Part shown: positions 12,916 through 30,376 of the stretch, piece after piece
Position numbering within the stretch: position 1 is the stretch's first letter
Layout of the letters: each line of letters opens with the position of its first letter
NCBI GenBank assembly: GCA_963695555.1
Contig: CAVOGR010000002.1
Location: 288,001-352,000 of the forward strand
Direction: 5' to 3'
DNA from: an uncultured Gemmatimonadales bacterium
Lineage (GTDB): Bacteria; Gemmatimonadota; Gemmatimonadetes; Gemmatimonadales; GWC2-71-9
DNA length: 64,000 nt
The notes under the pieces: generated by a model
Told to the model about the DNA's origin: nothing
Seen by the model: only the letters and a program-made list of their open reading frames with translations
The model's database searches: none
Made by a program: the position numbers and the translations under genes

Positions 12916-12987
<72 letters not shown>

Positions 12988-25770: not shown

Positions 25771-26772
25771 ATGGAGACCCGCACATCCGAGCGCTCGACC
25801 CGCCCGGCCATCGACCTGACCCATGCGCCGCTGGGCGAACGCGTCCAAGAACCGTTTGTCGTCGTCGCGGTCGATCACCGCGGAATCGATGAACCGTTCA
25901 CGGTGCTTACTCTCGGCAACCGCACCGGACGGATCGAGACGGCCCCGTTTTGGCTGAAAGACCTGCCCCGTGTGACCGGCATCGTGAAGGGCGACGTGGC
26001 CCAGGTCATCGGAGAGATCGCCTCGTATCACGACCGGCGACAGCTCAAGGTCAGTTCACTTCGCGTGCTGCCGAAAGACATGGTCGATTGGTCCGACCTG
26101 CTGCCGTCGATCGGGGATACTGGTCCCTATTGGGATGCGGCGGATCGGTGGCGGTCGACGATCGTCCGCCCCAGGCTGCGGGCGGTGATCGACCTGTTCT
26201 TCGCGGACCCGGAGTTTCGCCTACGCTTCGGAGCCTGCCCCGCAAGCCTGAACGAGCACCACGCCGCCCTGGGCGGGGTGCTGGTGCATACGGTGGAGGT
26301 GGCGAGGATTGCCCGGACAATTGCCCGGGTGTGCCATGCCGAAGTCGATGTGGCCGTGGCCGGGGCCTTGCTTCACGATATCGGAAAGACCGAGGCCTAC
26401 CGCTGGTCGGGAGGATTCGATCTCTCCGAGCGTGGGACCTTGCACGGCCCACAGGTGCTTGGAGCGGACTTGCTCGCTCAGCGGGTCCGGTCCGTCACGG
26501 CACCGGCCTGCACCGAGCACGAGCTGGCTCTCCTGCAGCACTTGGTGCTTGCGCAGTCGGATACGCGTCCGCATCGCTCTCCCGTGGTTCCGGCAACCCT
26601 CGAGGCCTTGGTCATCCATCACGCAGACCGAGCCAGTGCCCAAACCGCAGGGCTAGCCGAGGCGCCCCCTTGGGGGACAGGCGCGCCGGGCGATCTCTTG
26701 ATCACATTGGCGAACGTCCGAGGCCCCGACGGGCAGCAGGTGTTTCGTGGGGCCAGCGATTGGGGGGCGTAG
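25771..26772 (+). CDS. YhaM/Cbf1-like OB-fold + HD-domain 3'-5' exonuclease
   Basis: LTLGNRTGRIE OB-fold; PAS..HHAALGGVLVHT; ALLHDIGK; LEALVIHHAD. Confidence 0.85.
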   Translation: METRTSERSTRPAIDLTHAPLGERVQEPFVVVAVDHRGIDEPFTVLTLGNRTGRIETAPFWLKDLPRVTGIVKGDVAQVIGEIASYHDRRQLKVSSLRVLPKDMVDWSDLLPSIGDTGPYWDAADRWRSTIVRPRLRAVIDLFFADPEFRLRFGACPASLNEHHAALGGVLVHTVEVARIARTIARVCHAEVDVAVAGALLHDIGKTEAYRWSGGFDLSERGTLHGPQVLGADLLAQRVRSVTAPACTEHELALLQHLVLAQSDTRPHRSPVVPATLEALVIHHADRASAQTAGLAEAPPWGTGAPGDLLITLANVRGPDGQQVFRGASDWGA

Positions 26773-26791
26773 GTCCGCATAGACCAGATAC

Positions 26792-26834
26792 AAAAGAGGG
26801 ACGGCCGTCTGGCTCTTAACCAAACGACCGTCCC
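26792..26834 (-). terminator. Intrinsic terminator ending the candidate ncRNA
   Basis: GGGACGGUCGUUUGG-UUAAGAG-CCAGACGGCCGUCCC-UCUUUU; 15-bp stem with 2 G-U pairs that work only on the minus strand. Confidence 0.85.
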
Positions 26835-27215
26835 ACACATCAGCTACCCGAGGCCGGGGCTCGCGCCGCCGTTCTTCTCCCACCCGCCGCCGCTTGGCTG
26901 ATGCGCCGATCGGTAGGGCTAGGTGAGGCCTCAGCTTCCATCCCCAGGCCGGATGGCCCTCCCACCTGGTTCGTTGATGCGAGCGCTGCGAGTCAGATCG
27001 GGTCGCGGACCGACCTTTCGCACTGCACCCCGAGGCGCCACATCGGGGTGGATGAAGCGCGCGACTGGCTTCATCCGCCTCGGTCGAGGTGATCACCGGA
27101 ATCAAACGGCCGCCTGAGCCCTTGGTGCTTGGCAACCTCTCCCGATAACTCGCCGAAGCTCACTCGCCGGTCGTACCCAGAATTCAGGGATCCCAAGCCG
27201 GTCCCAACGAGTGAC
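26792..27215 (-). ncRNA. Candidate ~420-nt highly structured non-coding RNA, family not recognised
   Basis: No credible ORF; at least 7 hairpins plus long-range stems; G-U pairs consistently favour the minus strand; bounded by promoter-like motif and terminator. Confidence 0.65.
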
Positions 27216-27221
27216 GACCCA

Positions 27222-27249
27222 AAGATAAGGCCCAGGCAAAACGGCACAA
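27222..27249 (-). promoter_or_regulatory. Sigma70-like promoter for the candidate ncRNA
   Basis: TTGTGC (27249-27244)-N16-TATCTT (27227-27222), 7 nt before the first hairpin. Confidence 0.55.
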
Positions 27250-27283
27250 GTGCCTGTCTTTCTTCGGGTTACGCGATTCGGTC

Positions 27284-27376
27284 TGTGGATAGATGTGGAG
27301 CATTAAGCCCTGATATCGGTATCAGGTAGGGGGGCTCTCCACAGGGTGTGGAGATGTTGATTACTGCTTCTCCACA
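27284..27376. promoter_or_regulatory. Cluster of five DnaA-box-like 9-mers
   Basis: TGTGGATAG 27284, TGTGGAGCA 27294, CTCTCCACA 27335, TGTGGAGAT 27347, TTCTCCACA 27368, versus consensus TTATCCACA. Confidence 0.55.
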
Positions 27377-27423
27377 CCTGGTGATAGATGGTTGCCGAAG
27401 GTGCCGCGGTTGTGGAGTGGTCC

Positions 27424-28032
27424 TCAGGACTCGAGACCGACCTCGATATATCGGAACGACGAGTCCAGTTCGGTCGGGAGGAACAAGCACCCTGCGGAGC
27501 CAGCGGCGAACCACCCGCCGAGCAACGCCCGGGGAACATCGAGTTCCTGGATCACCGGACCCAACCAGCGGCGCAGGTGCCGCACCTCGGGGGCCCGCCG
27601 CGCCAGGACCGACAGCAGGGCCCCACCGCCGGGTGTCGCACGGAGAAAATGTGCCAGCGCATGGGCGCGCTGTCTGAATTCCACGGCCTTGACGCCCGGT
27701 TCGTCGAACAGCACGGCTCCCTCCAGCAGAGCGGTGGGCGGGGCGTCGAGCCGCGGGCCGAGATACACGTATTGGCGCGACTTCTTGATCTTACGCTCTA
27801 CTACCGCGGCACCGGTCTCGCTCGTGAGCCGCGCCGCATGCAGCTGGTCGTCGTCGTGCAGGATGCCGACTGCCGCCGTCCATTCGAGGGCCGAAAGGGC
27901 GGATTCGATGGGACAGCCTCCATCGTCGGTGGCGACTAGCCTCGGCGCTTCCCCGGCACGAAGCATGAAGTGCGCAAGGCCTTCGGCCCGGTCCATAAAT
28001 GTCCGGACGACAAGAATTTGTGGCAGAGTCAT
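27424..28032 (-). CDS. Hypothetical protein
   Basis: GAGGA RBS, 202 aa, protein-like composition. Confidence 0.75.
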   Translation of the reverse strand: MTLPQILVVRTFMDRAEGLAHFMLRAGEAPRLVATDDGGCPIESALSALEWTAAVGILHDDDQLHAARLTSETGAAVVERKIKKSRQYVYLGPRLDAPPTALLEGAVLFDEPGVKAVEFRQRAHALAHFLRATPGGGALLSVLARRAPEVRHLRRWLGPVIQELDVPRALLGGWFAAGSAGCLFLPTELDSSFRYIEVGLES

Positions 28033-28124: not shown

Positions 28125-30107
28125 TCAGGGCACGGCGGCCGGCCGGGGCTCCACCCGGACGATCCAGAGCCCCGAGTTCATGTCCGGCACGTAGATCCGG
28201 CCATCCCGGTAGATCGCCCCCCACGCCATGGGGGAGTTGGGCATCGTCGCGTTGGGGTCGCCGGTGTAGACGTGCGCGATTTGTCGTCCCTGCCGGAGCA
28301 GGTCGCCCCTCAGCTCGCCTGAGATGTCGAGCACACGGAGCCCGCCTTGGTAGTCGCCGAGGTACAGCGTATCGCCGGCCACCCAGATGTTGTGCGCGCC
28401 TCCGTCTCTGGGCTCGTAGTACGCCACCTCCCGCGGGTTGAGCAGGTCCGACACATCGACGACGTGCAATCCGCCGTACGGACGGCCCAATCCTAGAACC
28501 GTTGGGCCCGTGAGCGGCGATGGTGTCGCGGCGAACACCTCGTCGCCGACAAAGACATACCGGCCATGTCGCCAGGCGGTATGGGTGCCCCGAATGAAGC
28601 CCGGCCCGCCCACGGCCTCGACATCTCGATACAGCCGATCGAGGTCATACTTGAACTGCGATACCAGCTGCGGGTTCTCCGCGGTTCCGCCCCGGATGCC
28701 GTTGCCAACATCCAGGATCACGAGGCCGTCATTCCAGTAGCTCAGATAGGCCAAACCGTCCTGCACATCGATATCATGCAACATCCGTCCTGCGGGTGCG
28801 CGGGGCACTTCCCAGCGTGCGACCTGCCGCGGACTGTAAGGGTTCCGAATGTCGATCACACGCATCGAGCCGGTCGCGTCGTCTGTCAGGTACACATGGC
28901 CGCGGTAGACGAAGGCGCTGTGGACACCTCCCGTGACCGTCTCGGTGAATTCGGCGATTGCCTTGGGGTGGGCCGGATCCTCGAAGGAGAGAATCACGAT
29001 GCCGTTCTGTCTCGTCGAGGCCCCTTCACGGGTCATGACGCCGAACTTGCCGTCTTCGGTTGTCATGACGTCGTTGATGTGCCGTGCGTCAACCACCACC
29101 GAGTCCGTGATGTGGGGAGCGCCCGGATTGGACAGGTCAATGGCGTAGAGTCGGTCCCCAACCGTAGTCAGATAGCCATATTGCCCGTTGGGGTGAAGCC
29201 AGAATTCGGCGGCGGTCCCCGCGACGGGTTGCCGACCCACGAGCGCAGCCGACCGGACCACGTTCCGCGCCGACGCTTCGACTCTCGCCTCTGCGGTGCG
29301 TCCGGCAAATGTCGCGACGACGCGATAGGATCCCGGCACTTCAGCCACAAACATCCCATCGGGATCGACCAGTGCGTGCCCCGGGCTCACCGCCCACTCG
29401 GGACTGGCGTCTGCCAGCAGATTGCCGGCTGCGTCGCGTGCCCGAAACGTGAACGCCACGACATCGCCCGTTCGGACGGTTGCACTGGGGGGGTCTAATT
29501 CGATCGACGCCACGGGATTGGCGTTGACCCGGAGCGACATCCGCTCAACCACGGTTCCCACCCGCGCGGACAGGGTTGCCCGGCCGGGCCTGAGCGCGGC
29601 AAGCCTCCCGGCGGATGTCACCGCCACCACTCCTGGAGCATCGGATTCCCAGAGCACCTCGTCATACCGGCGGTCGCCGTCGGCCGAATATGGGATGGCA
29701 CGGACCTGTGCTGATTGCCCGACATAGAGCATCGCGAGGGCGGGCTCGAGTGCGATCCGAGATGCCGGCCGGGGCACGATCCGCACGTCAGCAAAGCCTG
29801 TCGCTGGCGCCCCACCTGCACGACGGCTTACCAAGGCCGAGATGCGGAGAGTTCCGGTTGACCCGCCCGTCACCAGACCAGTCGAATCCACGGCTCCTTC
29901 GAATTGGCCGCCGGATTGAAACCAGCGGACGCGGATATCGCGAAGCCTGGCTCCGGATGAATCGTACGCCGCGACAGTGAGTCGAATGGTGTCGCCCACT
30001 ACAATGGCAATGTCACGGGGCTCAATGTCGACCCGGGCCACAGACTGGGACGTTGGCGAGGGTGCCACCTGTTGAAGCGCGACGAGGAGAAGAGCTGCGG
30101 AAACCAT
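28125..30107 (-). CDS. Secreted protein with tandem Ig-like (Big_2) domains and LVIVD-repeat propeller
   Basis: Signal peptide; WESDAPGVVAV..G..AALRPGRATLSA; repeats MRVIDIRNPYSP, GLVILDV, LHVVDVSDLLNP. Confidence 0.85.
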   Translation of the reverse strand: MVSAALLLVALQQVAPSPTSQSVARVDIEPRDIAIVVGDTIRLTVAAYDSSGARLRDIRVRWFQSGGQFEGAVDSTGLVTGGSTGTLRISALVSRRAGGAPATGFADVRIVPRPASRIALEPALAMLYVGQSAQVRAIPYSADGDRRYDEVLWESDAPGVVAVTSAGRLAALRPGRATLSARVGTVVERMSLRVNANPVASIELDPPSATVRTGDVVAFTFRARDAAGNLLADASPEWAVSPGHALVDPDGMFVAEVPGSYRVVATFAGRTAEARVEASARNVVRSAALVGRQPVAGTAAEFWLHPNGQYGYLTTVGDRLYAIDLSNPGAPHITDSVVVDARHINDVMTTEDGKFGVMTREGASTRQNGIVILSFEDPAHPKAIAEFTETVTGGVHSAFVYRGHVYLTDDATGSMRVIDIRNPYSPRQVARWEVPRAPAGRMLHDIDVQDGLAYLSYWNDGLVILDVGNGIRGGTAENPQLVSQFKYDLDRLYRDVEAVGGPGFIRGTHTAWRHGRYVFVGDEVFAATPSPLTGPTVLGLGRPYGGLHVVDVSDLLNPREVAYYEPRDGGAHNIWVAGDTLYLGDYQGGLRVLDISGELRGDLLRQGRQIAHVYTGDPNATMPNSPMAWGAIYRDGRIYVPDMNSGLWIVRVEPRPAAVP

Positions 30108-30376
30108 GCAAACCTCGAATCGGGACAGAGAGGGCCGGAGCGGCACAATTGGCCGAGCGGCTAATCTATGCCCACGGTCCGCGTCCCGCGACTGCCTGGT
30201 ATGTCACCCTCGAATCGAACCGGTCAGGAGGTGTGCGACGGCGTTATCGTTCCACGCTCACCGCAGCCGGCGCCGCTCGCCGTGGTATCGGACTGCCGCT
30301 TTCGACCAGGAAGAGGCTGGCCGCGAGCAGAGGGACACGCCTACATCGGGCCACGCCACAGAGATCCAGAAACAGC

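Follow-up and report, generated by a model that had tools for sequence, protein, structure and literature searches.

What kind of gene, if any, fills the 651-bp gap between a YhaM-like ORF (25771..26772, plus strand) and an orphan ORF (27424..28032, minus strand) of this Gemmatimonadales genome? The gap lies in the 64,000-nucleotide stretch of DNA that was analysed (the window, to which all plain coordinates refer), and an earlier note had described it as a space of about 650 bp that has no credible ORF and is occupied by a large non-coding RNA. The only long ORF in the gap, which encodes 160 amino acids and overlaps the RNA (26653..27135, minus strand), gave zero matches in a Pfam search. A protein-coding reading of the RNA was rejected because codon periodicity is absent: column variability by three-base phase is 0.264, 0.235 and 0.236. 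Single-base indels are common among the RNA homologues. The minus strand folds with a minimum free energy of -231.2 kcal/mol as compared to -203.0 +/- 6.0 kcal/mol for 100 shuffled sequences (z -4.67), none of which was as good. Sequence, conservation, covariation and RNA contigs identify window positions 27215 to 26792 on the minus strand as the gene for a non-coding RNA of ca. 390-425 nt (ca. 424 nt as transcribed here) with its own promoter and intrinsic terminator.

The predicted start of the RNA, near 27215, is about 7 nt past the -10 hexamer; its 3' end lies at the U-tract of the terminator, near 26792. The promoter (27222..27249, minus strand) consists of a -35-like hexamer TTGTGC (27249-27244), a 16-nt spacer and a -10 hexamer TATCTT (27227-27222). 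These elements, proposed earlier, are present and are kept as TTGCGC-N16/17-TAT(A/C)TT in homologues and paralogues, but they match 7 of 12 consensus letters and fall below the threshold of a generic sigma-70 scanner, which calls no promoter at the RNA locus. Because this scanner misses the hexamers, the promoter assignment rests on conservation and position. The -35 hexamer is abutted by an upstream element, GTAACCCGAAGAAAGACAGGCAC (27250..27272, minus strand), which is near-invariant between genera in upstream alignments and occurs once in the genome itself. A promoter common to other genes was considered and rejected, the element being unique and three looser promoter patterns giving zero matches genome-wide. 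At the other end, the expected terminator (26792..26834, minus strand) is borne out by a terminator scanner, which finds a stem of 17 pairs (26834..26798) followed by TCTTTTG (UCUUUUG in the RNA), and by covariation, with compensatory changes at 8 of 10 pairs of this helix (helix 25).

The RNA exists as a discrete species of ca. 375 nt in environmental RNA. Three metatranscriptome studies yielded contigs of 375, 371 and 374 nt that match with zero mismatches and each end inside the RNA; they cover 27202..26825, the RNA alone, and give neither strand, exact ends nor level. Some 220 nt separate them from the upstream gene, and the libraries behind them are as small as 34 and 80 million letters. 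Additionally, 13 runs labelled as RNA contain at least 43% of the sampled words of the RNA. A contig of 1967 nt from one run (X1) spans the whole stretch and is uninformative on transcript ends. The locus thus shows what is generally expected of an independent sRNA or ncRNA gene, that is, its own promoter, its own terminator and a discrete transcript, strand and exact ends lying outside the contig evidence. It does not form the 5' UTR of a same-strand gene, as a riboswitch or cis-acting leader would: the terminator ends the RNA, and it has nothing to lead into because the next downstream gene (25771..26772, plus strand) is convergent. This neighbour, included as context, encodes an HD-domain, YhaM-like 3'-5' exoribonuclease (Pfam HD, E 5.3e-10; NCBIfam YhaM, E 1.1e-19, far short of the family cut-off). 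It adjoins the RNA in 36 of 110 loci, and the downstream neighbours vary between loci.

Sequence comparison with Rfam 15 (4227 models, family gathering thresholds), the novelty check that had been suggested, returned no family at the gathering score for the locus, the only match in the whole window being a tRNA (12916-12987). At E<=10, the region 26400-27700 gave four matches, all far under gathering (best 20.1 bits vs 35), to eukaryotic snoRNA and miRNA models and RT-15; OLE, raiA, ROOL, GOLLD and HEARO, all of them Rfam 15 families, are absent from these matches. The claim that the locus bears no RNase P, tmRNA or SRP signatures holds, and all three RNAs were located elsewhere in the genome: RNase P RNA (RF00010) at C2:401595-401974 (299.6 bits), tmRNA (RF00023) at C5:134479-134845 (148.5 bits), and SRP RNA at a further site. 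No account of the RNA was found in the full-text literature, subscription journals being outside the coverage. A covariance-model search detected the RNA in 70 of 71 genomes of family f1 and in both genomes of family f3, and in 0 of 77 genomes from ten other Gemmatimonadota families; the gene is conserved in all 150 loci that were fetched, as the earlier note would have it for related genomes. The RNA occurs in just two families, both of uncultured Gemmatimonadales. Its range, together with the lack of an Rfam family, the covariation and the RNA-only contigs, agrees with the proposal of a lineage-specific large ncRNA, perhaps of a new class, and supports its assignment to a family not yet described. 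Diverged paralogues, two to three per genome, are found in 18 of the 73 RNA-positive genomes, each of which has one gene for the adjacent protein (see below); the paralogous copies have no consistent neighbour genes and sit apart from any copy of that protein gene.

The fold was derived from a covariation alignment of 99 RNA homologues. Pairing is found in 92.0% of cells. Shuffles reach 79.2%, none of 500 being as high as the real value, and sliding the partners gives 36-44%. Compensatory changes occur at 115 of 143 pairs, which is the covariation in relatives that had been called for, and 52 columns are invariant over the 99 sequences. Wobble pairs, from which a minus-strand RNA had been argued, bear the argument out; for example, one pair reads G-U in 87 of the 99 sequences when the minus strand is taken. 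The RNA is multi-branched with two pseudoknots, and its 5' and 3' ends are not paired with each other: the 5' end folds back on itself in a local hairpin, and the terminator makes up the 3' end. The interrupted rod of 6S/Ms1 type that had been suggested is thereby not borne out, and the 6S model RF00013 gave no match.

All elements of the fold lie on the minus strand. The 5' hairpin (27160..27214; helices 2-5, 69-83% of cells paired) is variable in sequence and register, shows compensatory changes at every pair, and is missing from short forms and paralogues. The stem proposed here earlier, 27214-27204/27170-27160, pairs in the genome itself, but this register is found in only 60.3% of cells, the homologues keeping a 5' hairpin in other registers. 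The 5' domain (27077..27159) comprises nested helices 6-12, which are 88-96% paired (27159-27149/27088-27077, 27144-27140/27101-27097, 27137-27128/27119-27108 and 27096-27093/27092-27089), and a conserved loop CAAGGGC; some homologues (L012, L013 and L069) have lost it by deletion. The 3' domain (26836..26981) is closed by a long-range helix, 26981-26973/26844-26836, with compensatory changes at 9 of 9 pairs. It contains helices 17-23, 90-95% paired (26969-26960/26953-26944, 26936-26929/26853-26846, 26928-26917/26888-26877 and 26871-26864/26861-26855), and carries the conserved strand GAGAAGAAC; in some genera (L027, L028, L030, L041 and L096) the profile match stops short of this domain.

Between the two domains lies an invariant three-hairpin core (26987..27075), in which 97-99% of cells are paired: H5 (27075-27051, loop CCAGUCGCG), H6 (27050-27026, loop GAUGUGGCGCCU) and H7 (27022-26987, loop UCCGCGAC). 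H5 and H6 have 5-6 pairs with compensatory changes. Pseudoknot PK1 (27002..27065) joins GUCGCG of the H5 loop (27065-27060) to CGCGAC of the H7 loop (27007-27002) by 6 pairs, 98.5% paired; its end pair is G-C in 51, A-U in 12 and G-U in 2 sequences, an inner pair is G-C in 64 and A-U in 1, and in the paralogue L166 it reads AUCACG/CGUGAU. Pseudoknot PK2 (26982..27039) joins GGCGC of the H6 loop (27039-27035) to GCGCU (26986-26982) just 3' of H7 by 5 pairs, 98.8% paired, one of which is C-G in 56 and U-A in 10 sequences and another G-U in 27, G-C in 21 and A-U in 14. The lead to PK2 came from a blind all-against-all covariation scan that was swamped by clade-correlated columns, and PK2 was then tested directly. 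Both of these loop contacts covary. Of the six local stems drawn from the single sequence, three survive in the 99 homologues and three do not. The survivors are 27076-27068/27058-27050 (88.7% of cells paired), which is H5 one position out of register, 27050-27043/27033-27026 (98.2%), which is H6, and 27016-27010/27001-26995 (94.1%), the inner part of H7. Besides the 5' stem discussed above, 26956-26951/26943-26938 (73.5%) gives way to the supported helix 26969-26960/26953-26944, and 26904-26897/26844-26837 (63.9%) falls since its 3' strand pairs with 26981-26973 instead. The long-range pairings proposed earlier likewise find no support: AUCGG/CCGAU is paired in 75.3% of cells, CGUUUGAU/AUCAACG in 52.2%, and AGGGCU/AGCCCU in 75.8% with no compensatory change. 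AGGGC (27121-27117) may nevertheless pair with GCCCU (26919-26915).

The gene that adjoins the RNA at 27424..28032 (minus strand) encodes an orphan protein of 202 amino acids whose distribution over families matches that of the RNA. The two genes are neighbours in 95 of 110 loci of at least 2 kb, neighbour counts being taken from tblastn with the window's own neighbour proteins. In f1 the protein gene lies upstream of the RNA on the same strand; in six f3 loci it lies downstream on the opposite strand, and adjacency is also found in genome G026. In some loci the two are separated by an extra gene, which encodes a small protein with a signal peptide and has no evident connection to them. The protein is found in 118 of 125 f1 genomes, 3 of 3 f3 genomes and 0 of 172 genomes of other families. 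All 73 RNA-positive genomes of the covariance-model survey are protein-positive, one genome (G102) lacks both, and the overlap of the protein and RNA surveys holds no protein-positive genome without the RNA. The RNA is retained in five genomes that lack the protein, all three of genus g18 among them, at a completeness of 92-99%; because of these genomes, and because RNA paralogues outnumber protein genes, the protein is not needed for RNA retention. The matching ranges, and an adjacency kept in f3 despite the changed side and strand, suggest that protein and RNA are linked in evolution, although the adjacency could simply be inherited gene order.

Homology searches place the 202-aa protein in no known family. 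The family is acidic (median pI 5.55), and structure searches revealed no recognisable RNA-binding fold. Pfam at E<=10, NCBIfam, and Pfam run on all 41 family members gave stray matches only (E 0.005 or weaker), the best match among PDB sequences had E 0.018, and Foldseek against the PDB gave nothing at E<=0.001. A wide VIA-align search reached a best Z of 5.4, over residues 58-134 only, and a second look a best Z of 5.0. The ESM Atlas returned unnamed clusters only (best score 0.87); a collection of 5.8 billion sequences gave 909 clusters, the names shown among the best 120 being all 'hypothetical protein', and a library of 1.84 billion gave 137 representatives, most of which cover just part of the protein profile. 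Chains of PCNA, 9-1-1 and beta-clamp proteins align to residues 2-202 at background level (Z 3.8-4.8, rmsd 4.1-5.2 A, about 100 residues). The CYTH/TTM fold scores a Foldseek probability of 0.3-0.47 with TM about 0.2 (VIA Z 3.6-4.2), and the ExExK motif of TTM proteins was not seen in the alignment.

Upstream of the promoter, about 70-200 nt before the predicted RNA start, lies an array of six DnaA-box-like TCCACA/TGTGGA boxes (27284..27416) within 133 bp, some arranged as inverted repeats such as CTCCACAcccTGTGGAG. An array of 3-6 boxes precedes the promoter in the homologues, with at least three boxes in 102 of 110 loci; relative to the core it is found at -300 to -150, with 2.31 and 1.06 boxes per 50-bp bin as compared to a background of about 0.02. 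It is the densest of only three TCCACA clusters in the 3.57-Mb genome. The RNA paralogues have 0 or 1 exact TCCACA hexamer in the ca. 230 nt upstream of each. The best 9-mers of the array, CTATCCACA and TTCTCCACA, match the DnaA-box consensus TTATCCACA at 8 of 9 positions, and perfect TTATCCACA and TTGTCCACA are present in some loci. In 4 of 6 genomes the core is also present immediately before dnaA, in the form TTTTCCACA, and 5 of 6 dnaA-dnaN spacers contain TCCACA. Unlike in canonical DnaA boxes, the three 5' positions are not T-rich across loci, and the boxes form palindromes typical of dimeric regulators; because of these two features another factor than DnaA may bind them. In 6 of 6 genomes the distance from the RNA locus to dnaA is 40-380 kb, and the presumed oriC region of the genome itself has few TCCACA boxes. 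The array as oriC was rejected: dnaA (C2:397461-398855), followed by dnaN, and the minimum of the cumulative GC skew of C2 (ca. 390-400 kb) lie 83 kb from the RNA.

What, then, does the RNA do? The reading we prefer, to which we give about an even chance, is that of a stable trans-acting RNA of an undescribed family, probably acting with the 202-aa protein, its synthesis being controlled by the array. The folded RNA would itself be the working part, as it is in RNase P RNA, tmRNA and OLE, with no antisense or sponge role. In most lineages it probably partners the co-inherited acidic alpha/beta protein, which might form an RNP with it or be its substrate or cofactor. A factor bound to the TCCACA array probably governs synthesis, DnaA being the obvious candidate; under DnaA control, the amount of RNA would follow replication or growth state.

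A less probable but still serious possibility is that the RNA acts alone, as a self-folding or self-assembling particle, a ribozyme or a ligand sensor, with the protein being a syntenic bystander or a regulator of some other process. The five protein-less genomes that retain the RNA fit such a solitary role, as do the paralogous copies away from any protein copy, the invariant and doubly pseudoknotted core, and the acidic nature of a protein without an RNA-binding fold. There is precedent in OLE, ROOL and GOLLD, which are reported to form RNA-only assemblies (cryo-EM, PMC12286853). It would leave unaccounted for the identical family range of RNA and protein, an adjacency that outlasts the change of side and strand, and the lack of any protein-positive genome without the RNA in the survey overlap. 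At the opposite pole, and in our judgement unlikely, RNA and protein would constitute a new cellular RNP that is gated by DnaA through the boxes and, given the invariant doubly pseudoknotted core, possibly catalytic. If true, a major group of uncultured bacteria of soil and sediment would possess a housekeeping-type RNP by which an RNA-based activity is linked to the state of chromosome replication.

Alternatively, the DNA itself may be the functional unit, a box cluster for titrating or reactivating DnaA, with the RNA as by-product or as a helper that modulates the site by being transcribed. Clusters of this type outside oriC include datA and DARS of E. coli and the DnaA-box clusters of B. 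subtilis. Similar to datA and DARS, the present array is a tight cluster of DnaA-box-like sequences that lies off the origin but, in 6 of 6 genomes, within the origin-proximal part of the chromosome; no other TCCACA cluster of the genome is as dense, and the array is kept in 102 of 110 loci. Unlike them, it stands directly upstream of a conserved RNA gene and its boxes are without a T-rich flank, DnaA being a presumed, candidate binder. We regard a DNA unit as very unlikely, since the selection seen on the RNA (covarying helices, pseudoknots and 52 invariant columns) is too strong for a by-product, and the paralogues keep the RNA with reduced box sets only.

Hardly to be expected, either, is an RNA of 6S/Ms1 type that would bind RNA polymerase as a global regulator of transcription. 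Such a role would agree with the recovery of the RNA from libraries of 34 and 80 million letters, with its size, which lies in the range of Ms1 (about 300 nt), and with the lack of a detectable canonical 6S RNA in the genome. Similar to 6S (RF00013) and Ms1, the RNA would act in trans and not as an antisense regulator. It has no match to the 6S or any other Rfam model, however, and unlike the 6S rod with its central bubble it is branched with two pseudoknots, has no such bubble, and lacks a closing stem that joins the ends. The 6S model detects 0 of 61 genomes of the order (0 of 20 in each of f1, f2 and f3), although it detects only 5 of 14 control genomes. The 20 genomes of f2 have neither a 6S match nor the RNA; because 6S is also undetected in this family, which lacks the RNA, the RNA probably fills no 6S-shaped gap. 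Finally, the notion that there is no independent RNA gene but a 3' UTR, a cis-regulatory leader or a small coding region, to which the position downstream of the same-strand 202-aa gene in f1 and the overlapping 160-aa ORF might lend colour, is largely refuted by the conserved promoter, the f3 protein gene on the other side and strand, the convergent downstream gene, RNA contigs that end ca. 220 nt before the upstream gene, the absence of codon periodicity, the frequent single-base indels and the lack of a Pfam match for the ORF.

The preferred reading, a trans-acting RNA with a probable protein partner, has parallels among known large RNAs. OLE RNA (RF01071) is large, conserved, intricately folded, stable and of restricted range, and is linked to Oap proteins of otherwise unknown family. 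Similar to OLE, the RNA described here is large, folded and conserved, has a restricted range and is linked by gene position to an orphan protein. The differences are that neither sequence nor structure matches, that it is of ca. 420 nt and found in Gemmatimonadota, as opposed to ca. 610 nt and Bacillota for OLE, that its candidate partner is one soluble-looking acidic protein of 202 aa instead of membrane proteins, and that a repeat array precedes its promoter. The raiA motif RNA is likewise an orphan, conserved, pseudoknotted and independently transcribed RNA, often with its own promoter and terminator, features which the present RNA shares; it differs from raiA in having no Rfam match, in size, in the phyla where it occurs and in its neighbour genes. 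RNase P RNA and tmRNA are comparable in size (ca. 360-400 nt) and in having a pseudoknotted core that is invariant while the peripheral helices vary, and each has a small dedicated protein partner, a place for which the 202-aa protein is a candidate here. Unlike these RNAs, to which it shows no homology, the present RNA is not universal, being found in 0 of 77 genomes of the ten other Gemmatimonadota families.

To our knowledge, few large RNAs of bacteria possess a core that is invariant and pseudoknotted. Those that are understood (RNase P RNA, tmRNA, group I and II introns, OLE) mostly have catalytic or other central roles. For the RNA described here, experiments can start from the fold, which is backed by covariation and has two tertiary contacts, from a candidate partner protein whose family has no known relatives, and from a conserved array that possibly couples expression to DnaA. 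The locus also illustrates that annotation-empty gaps in metagenome-assembled genomes can conceal whole RNA families, and that the RNA of one such gap is assembled by itself even from very small metatranscriptomes.

An RNA gene lies on the minus strand of the 651 bp gap between an HD-domain YhaM-like ORF (25771..26772, plus strand) and a 202-aa ORF (27424..28032, minus strand). Its product is an independently transcribed, structurally constrained and pseudoknotted RNA of a family without described relative. A predicted promoter, with a -35-like TTGTGC (27249-27244), a 16-nt spacer and TATCTT (27227-27222), is separated by about 420 nt of GC-rich sequence from a terminator composed of a 17-pair hairpin (26834-26798) followed by UCUUUUG, all on the minus strand. 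A generic sigma-70 scanner called no promoter at TTGTGC/TATCTT, and the assignment therefore rests on conservation. The 458-nt stretch has a folding energy of -231.2 kcal/mol, as compared to -203.0 ± 6.0 in 100 dinucleotide shuffles (z -4.67), none of which folded as well. The column variability of the RNA shows no three-base period (0.264/0.235/0.236).

RNAalifold predicted 112 pairs from 25 sequences, with compensatory changes in 73. A 143-pair structure was then counted on an alignment of 99 sequences with less than 95% identity: 92.0% of the cells are paired, compared to 79.2% in shuffles (0/500 reached this value) and 36-44% when the partners are slid. Both sides have changed in 115 of the 143 pairs, versus 81.1 in shuffles; for the covariation score the values are 0.438 and 0.210. 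From its 5′ end the RNA, on the minus strand, consists of a variable hairpin (27214-27160), a 5′ domain (27159-27077), a core of three nearly invariant hairpins, H5 (27075-27051), H6 (27050-27026) and H7 (27022-26987), a 3′ domain closed by a long-range helix (26981-26973/26844-26836), and the terminator. The stems proposed in the earlier note at H5, H6, inner H7 and the terminator are retained, with 88.7-98.2% paired, and its 5′ stem forms in this genome, although no more than 60.3% of cells conform to that register. Its stems 26956/26938 (73.5% paired) and 26904/26837 (63.9%), as well as the long-range pairs AUCGG/CCGAU (75.3%) and CGUUUGAU/AUCAACG (52.2%), give way to alternative pairings rich in compensatory changes; its possible AGGGCU/AGCCCU helix is 75.8% paired and has no compensatory changes.

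In an alignment of 66 sequences, paralogues included, built with a model that contained no pseudoknots, comparative counts support two loop pseudoknots as tertiary pairings. In PK1, GUCGCG of the H5 loop pairs with CGCGAC of the H7 loop (6 pairs, 98.5% paired); its end pair is G-C in 51, A-U in 12 and G-U in 2 sequences, a single sequence has A-U at one inner pair, and paralogue L166 has AUCACG/CGUGAU. In PK2, GGCGC of the H6 loop pairs with GCGCU located after H7 (5 pairs, 98.8% paired), with one pair varying as C-G 56/U-A 10 and another as G-U 27/G-C 21/A-U 14.

The RNA is found in two families of Gemmatimonadales, denoted f1 and f3. BLASTN of the stretch gave matches in 23/24 relatives of f1, 5/8 of f3 and 0/8 of a third family, f2, with a core of ~300 nt at 70-86% identity between genera. 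Scanning 185,579 species genomes for an exact pattern gave at least 120 matching stretches, and all 80 titles among the matches listed were Gemmatimonadales, Gemmatimonadetes or Gemmatimonadota MAGs; the RNA was present in 150/150 fetched loci. When 150 further genomes of the phylum were searched with R1, a core covariance model with 138 positions and 37 pairs, the RNA was found in 70/71 genomes of f1 and 2/2 of f3, and in 0/31 of f2 and 0/46 of nine other families.

Two to three matches per genome occur in 18 of the 73 RNA-positive genomes. Eleven diverged paralogues (ten second copies, L160-L169, and L026) retain core, 3′ domain and terminator; the profile does not match them before positions 67-152 of 432, and the 5′ hairpin with some or all of the 5′ domain is therefore missing. 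Four of these paralogues have a promoter of the form CTCTTGCGCGC-N17-TAT(G/A/C)(T/C)T preceded by TGTGGAAATGTG-type boxes, and no consistent gene neighbours the set. In some genera (loci L027, L028, L030, L041, L096, L146 and L147) the profile match stops after the three-hairpin core, before the 3′ domain, and the HD/YhaM-like gene is closer to the RNA; these forms are either decaying copies or a shorter, minimal variant.

At gathering score, Rfam 15 has no match at the RNA locus. Its only match in the whole window is a tRNA gene (67 bits) at 12916-12987 on the minus strand. At E ≤ 10 over 26400-27700 it gives four matches, far below threshold, to eukaryotic snoRNA/miRNA models and RT-15. RNase P RNA (C2:401595-401974), tmRNA (C5:134479-134845) and SRP RNA (C1:841776-841873) are encoded elsewhere in the genome. 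No 6S RNA was detected in this genome (87% complete). That the RNA is of the 6S/Ms1 type, to which it had been likened, is unlikely, since the architecture is wrong and the 6S model is silent in 61/61 genomes sampled in the order, including 20 of family f2, itself without the RNA. Among the titles and abstract beginnings returned by a full-text literature search, no paper on this RNA was found.

Environmental RNA samples contain the RNA as a discrete species. At least 43% of sampled words were found in each of thirteen RNA-labelled runs (estuary, sediment and aquatic metatranscriptomes), four of which were compared contig by contig with the locus. Three runs from three studies each contain one contig of the RNA alone with 0 mismatches, covering 26828-27202 (375 nt), 26832-27202 (371 nt) and 26825-27198 (374 nt), from which strand and exact ends are not readable; two of these libraries are just 34 and 80 million letters in size. 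From the fourth run came a 1967-nt contig spanning everything, which is uninformative on the RNA limits. The three RNA-only contigs all break off around 26825-26832, at the base of the terminator hairpin, which hints at best weakly at 3′ trimming. Because they end there, trimming by the YhaM-like enzyme is conceivable; its gene is convergent to the RNA in 36/110 loci, and its similarity to the 3′-5′ exoribonuclease YhaM is weak.

In 95/110 loci of at least 2 kb, the 202-aa ORF is a neighbour of the RNA. Its position in f1 is upstream of the RNA on the same strand, some loci having a small signal-peptide gene between the two; in six f3 loci, as in genome G026, it is downstream on the opposite strand. 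Its profile matches 118/125 genomes of f1, 3/3 of f3 and 0/172 in ten other families. All 73 genomes positive for the RNA by R1 are also positive for the protein, and G102 lacks both. Judged by its conservation (27 invariant columns among 41 diverse members), the ORF is evidently a genuine protein. AlphaFold predicts an alpha/beta fold (pLDDT 88.2, pTM 0.85). The protein belongs to no Pfam or NCBIfam family, its best match among PDB sequences has E 0.018, Foldseek returned nothing at E ≤ 0.001, and VIA structure searches reached Z 5.4 and 5.0 at best; sliding clamps (Z 3.8-4.8) and triphosphate-tunnel enzymes (Z 3.6-4.2) resemble the whole chain at background level. Among 1.84 billion proteins the profile matched 137 representatives, most over part only, and the source names shown for relatives were 'hypothetical protein' alone. 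The family has a median pI of 5.55, and its conserved residues include many Arg, His, Asp and Glu. An obligate partnership is disfavoured because the RNA is kept in five protein-less genomes (92-99% complete), including 3/3 of one genus (g18), and paralogous RNAs come without a second copy of the gene. That the RNA acts with or on behalf of this co-inherited orphan in most lineages has, in our estimate, slightly less than an even chance. Beyond the 202-aa gene lies a 673-aa Big_2/LVIVD-repeat protein (28125-30146, minus strand), present in 31/110 loci.

Upstream of the promoter, ~70 to 200 nt from the predicted RNA start, six TCCACA/TGTGGA boxes, partly palindromes, form an array (27284-27416). 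Across loci, the 50-bp bins at -250 and -200 relative to the core contain 2.31 and 1.06 boxes, compared to about 0.02 elsewhere; 102/110 loci have at least three boxes. The conserved layout is TGTGGAttCACAac-TCCACA-t-cgTGTGGAc, ~30 nt, gTTAgc-TCCACA, followed by a near-invariant GTAACCCGAAGAAA-N3-CAGGCAC abutting the -35. Just three clusters of at least four boxes per 250 bp exist in this genome; the array is the densest, and the dnaA cluster has 3/4 boxes within the dnaA coding sequence. The DnaA box consensus is TTATCCACA. The box core is identical to the DnaA-box core, TTTTCCACA stands immediately upstream of dnaA in this genome and 3/5 relatives, and the dnaA-dnaN spacer has 1-3 TCCACA boxes in this genome and 4/5 relatives. 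The locus is origin-proximal in 6/6 genomes (40-380 kb from dnaA); as oriC itself it was rejected, dnaA and the GC-skew minimum being 83 kb off. Against DnaA count the palindromes, which would also suit a dimeric regulator, and the three 5′ flank positions of the array boxes, which are not T-rich across loci. DnaA is a tentative candidate for the factor at the array, somewhat less probable than not. A scanner scores the palindrome TCTCCACAGGGTGTGGAGA (27336-27354), which comprises two boxes, as a plus-strand hairpin resembling a terminator; a protein-binding dyad is the likelier reading.

Taken together, the RNA would act in trans through its fold, paired in function with the orphan protein in most lineages, and the array would govern its promoter, possibly via DnaA; we hold this reading to be evenly balanced between right and wrong.

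The only other intergenic TCCACA cluster in the genome (C1:828915-829191) lies in an AT-richer spacer and has five boxes, most of which carry the canonical T-rich flank (TTTTCCACA twice, TTCTCCACA and TATTCCACA). It is no obvious origin, as the contig GC skew rises steadily through it. Besides a normal dnaA, the genome also encodes a 670-aa ORF (C1:1052674-1054248) with two tandem Bac_DnaA (PF00308) ATPase domains, an arrangement found again in five relatives.
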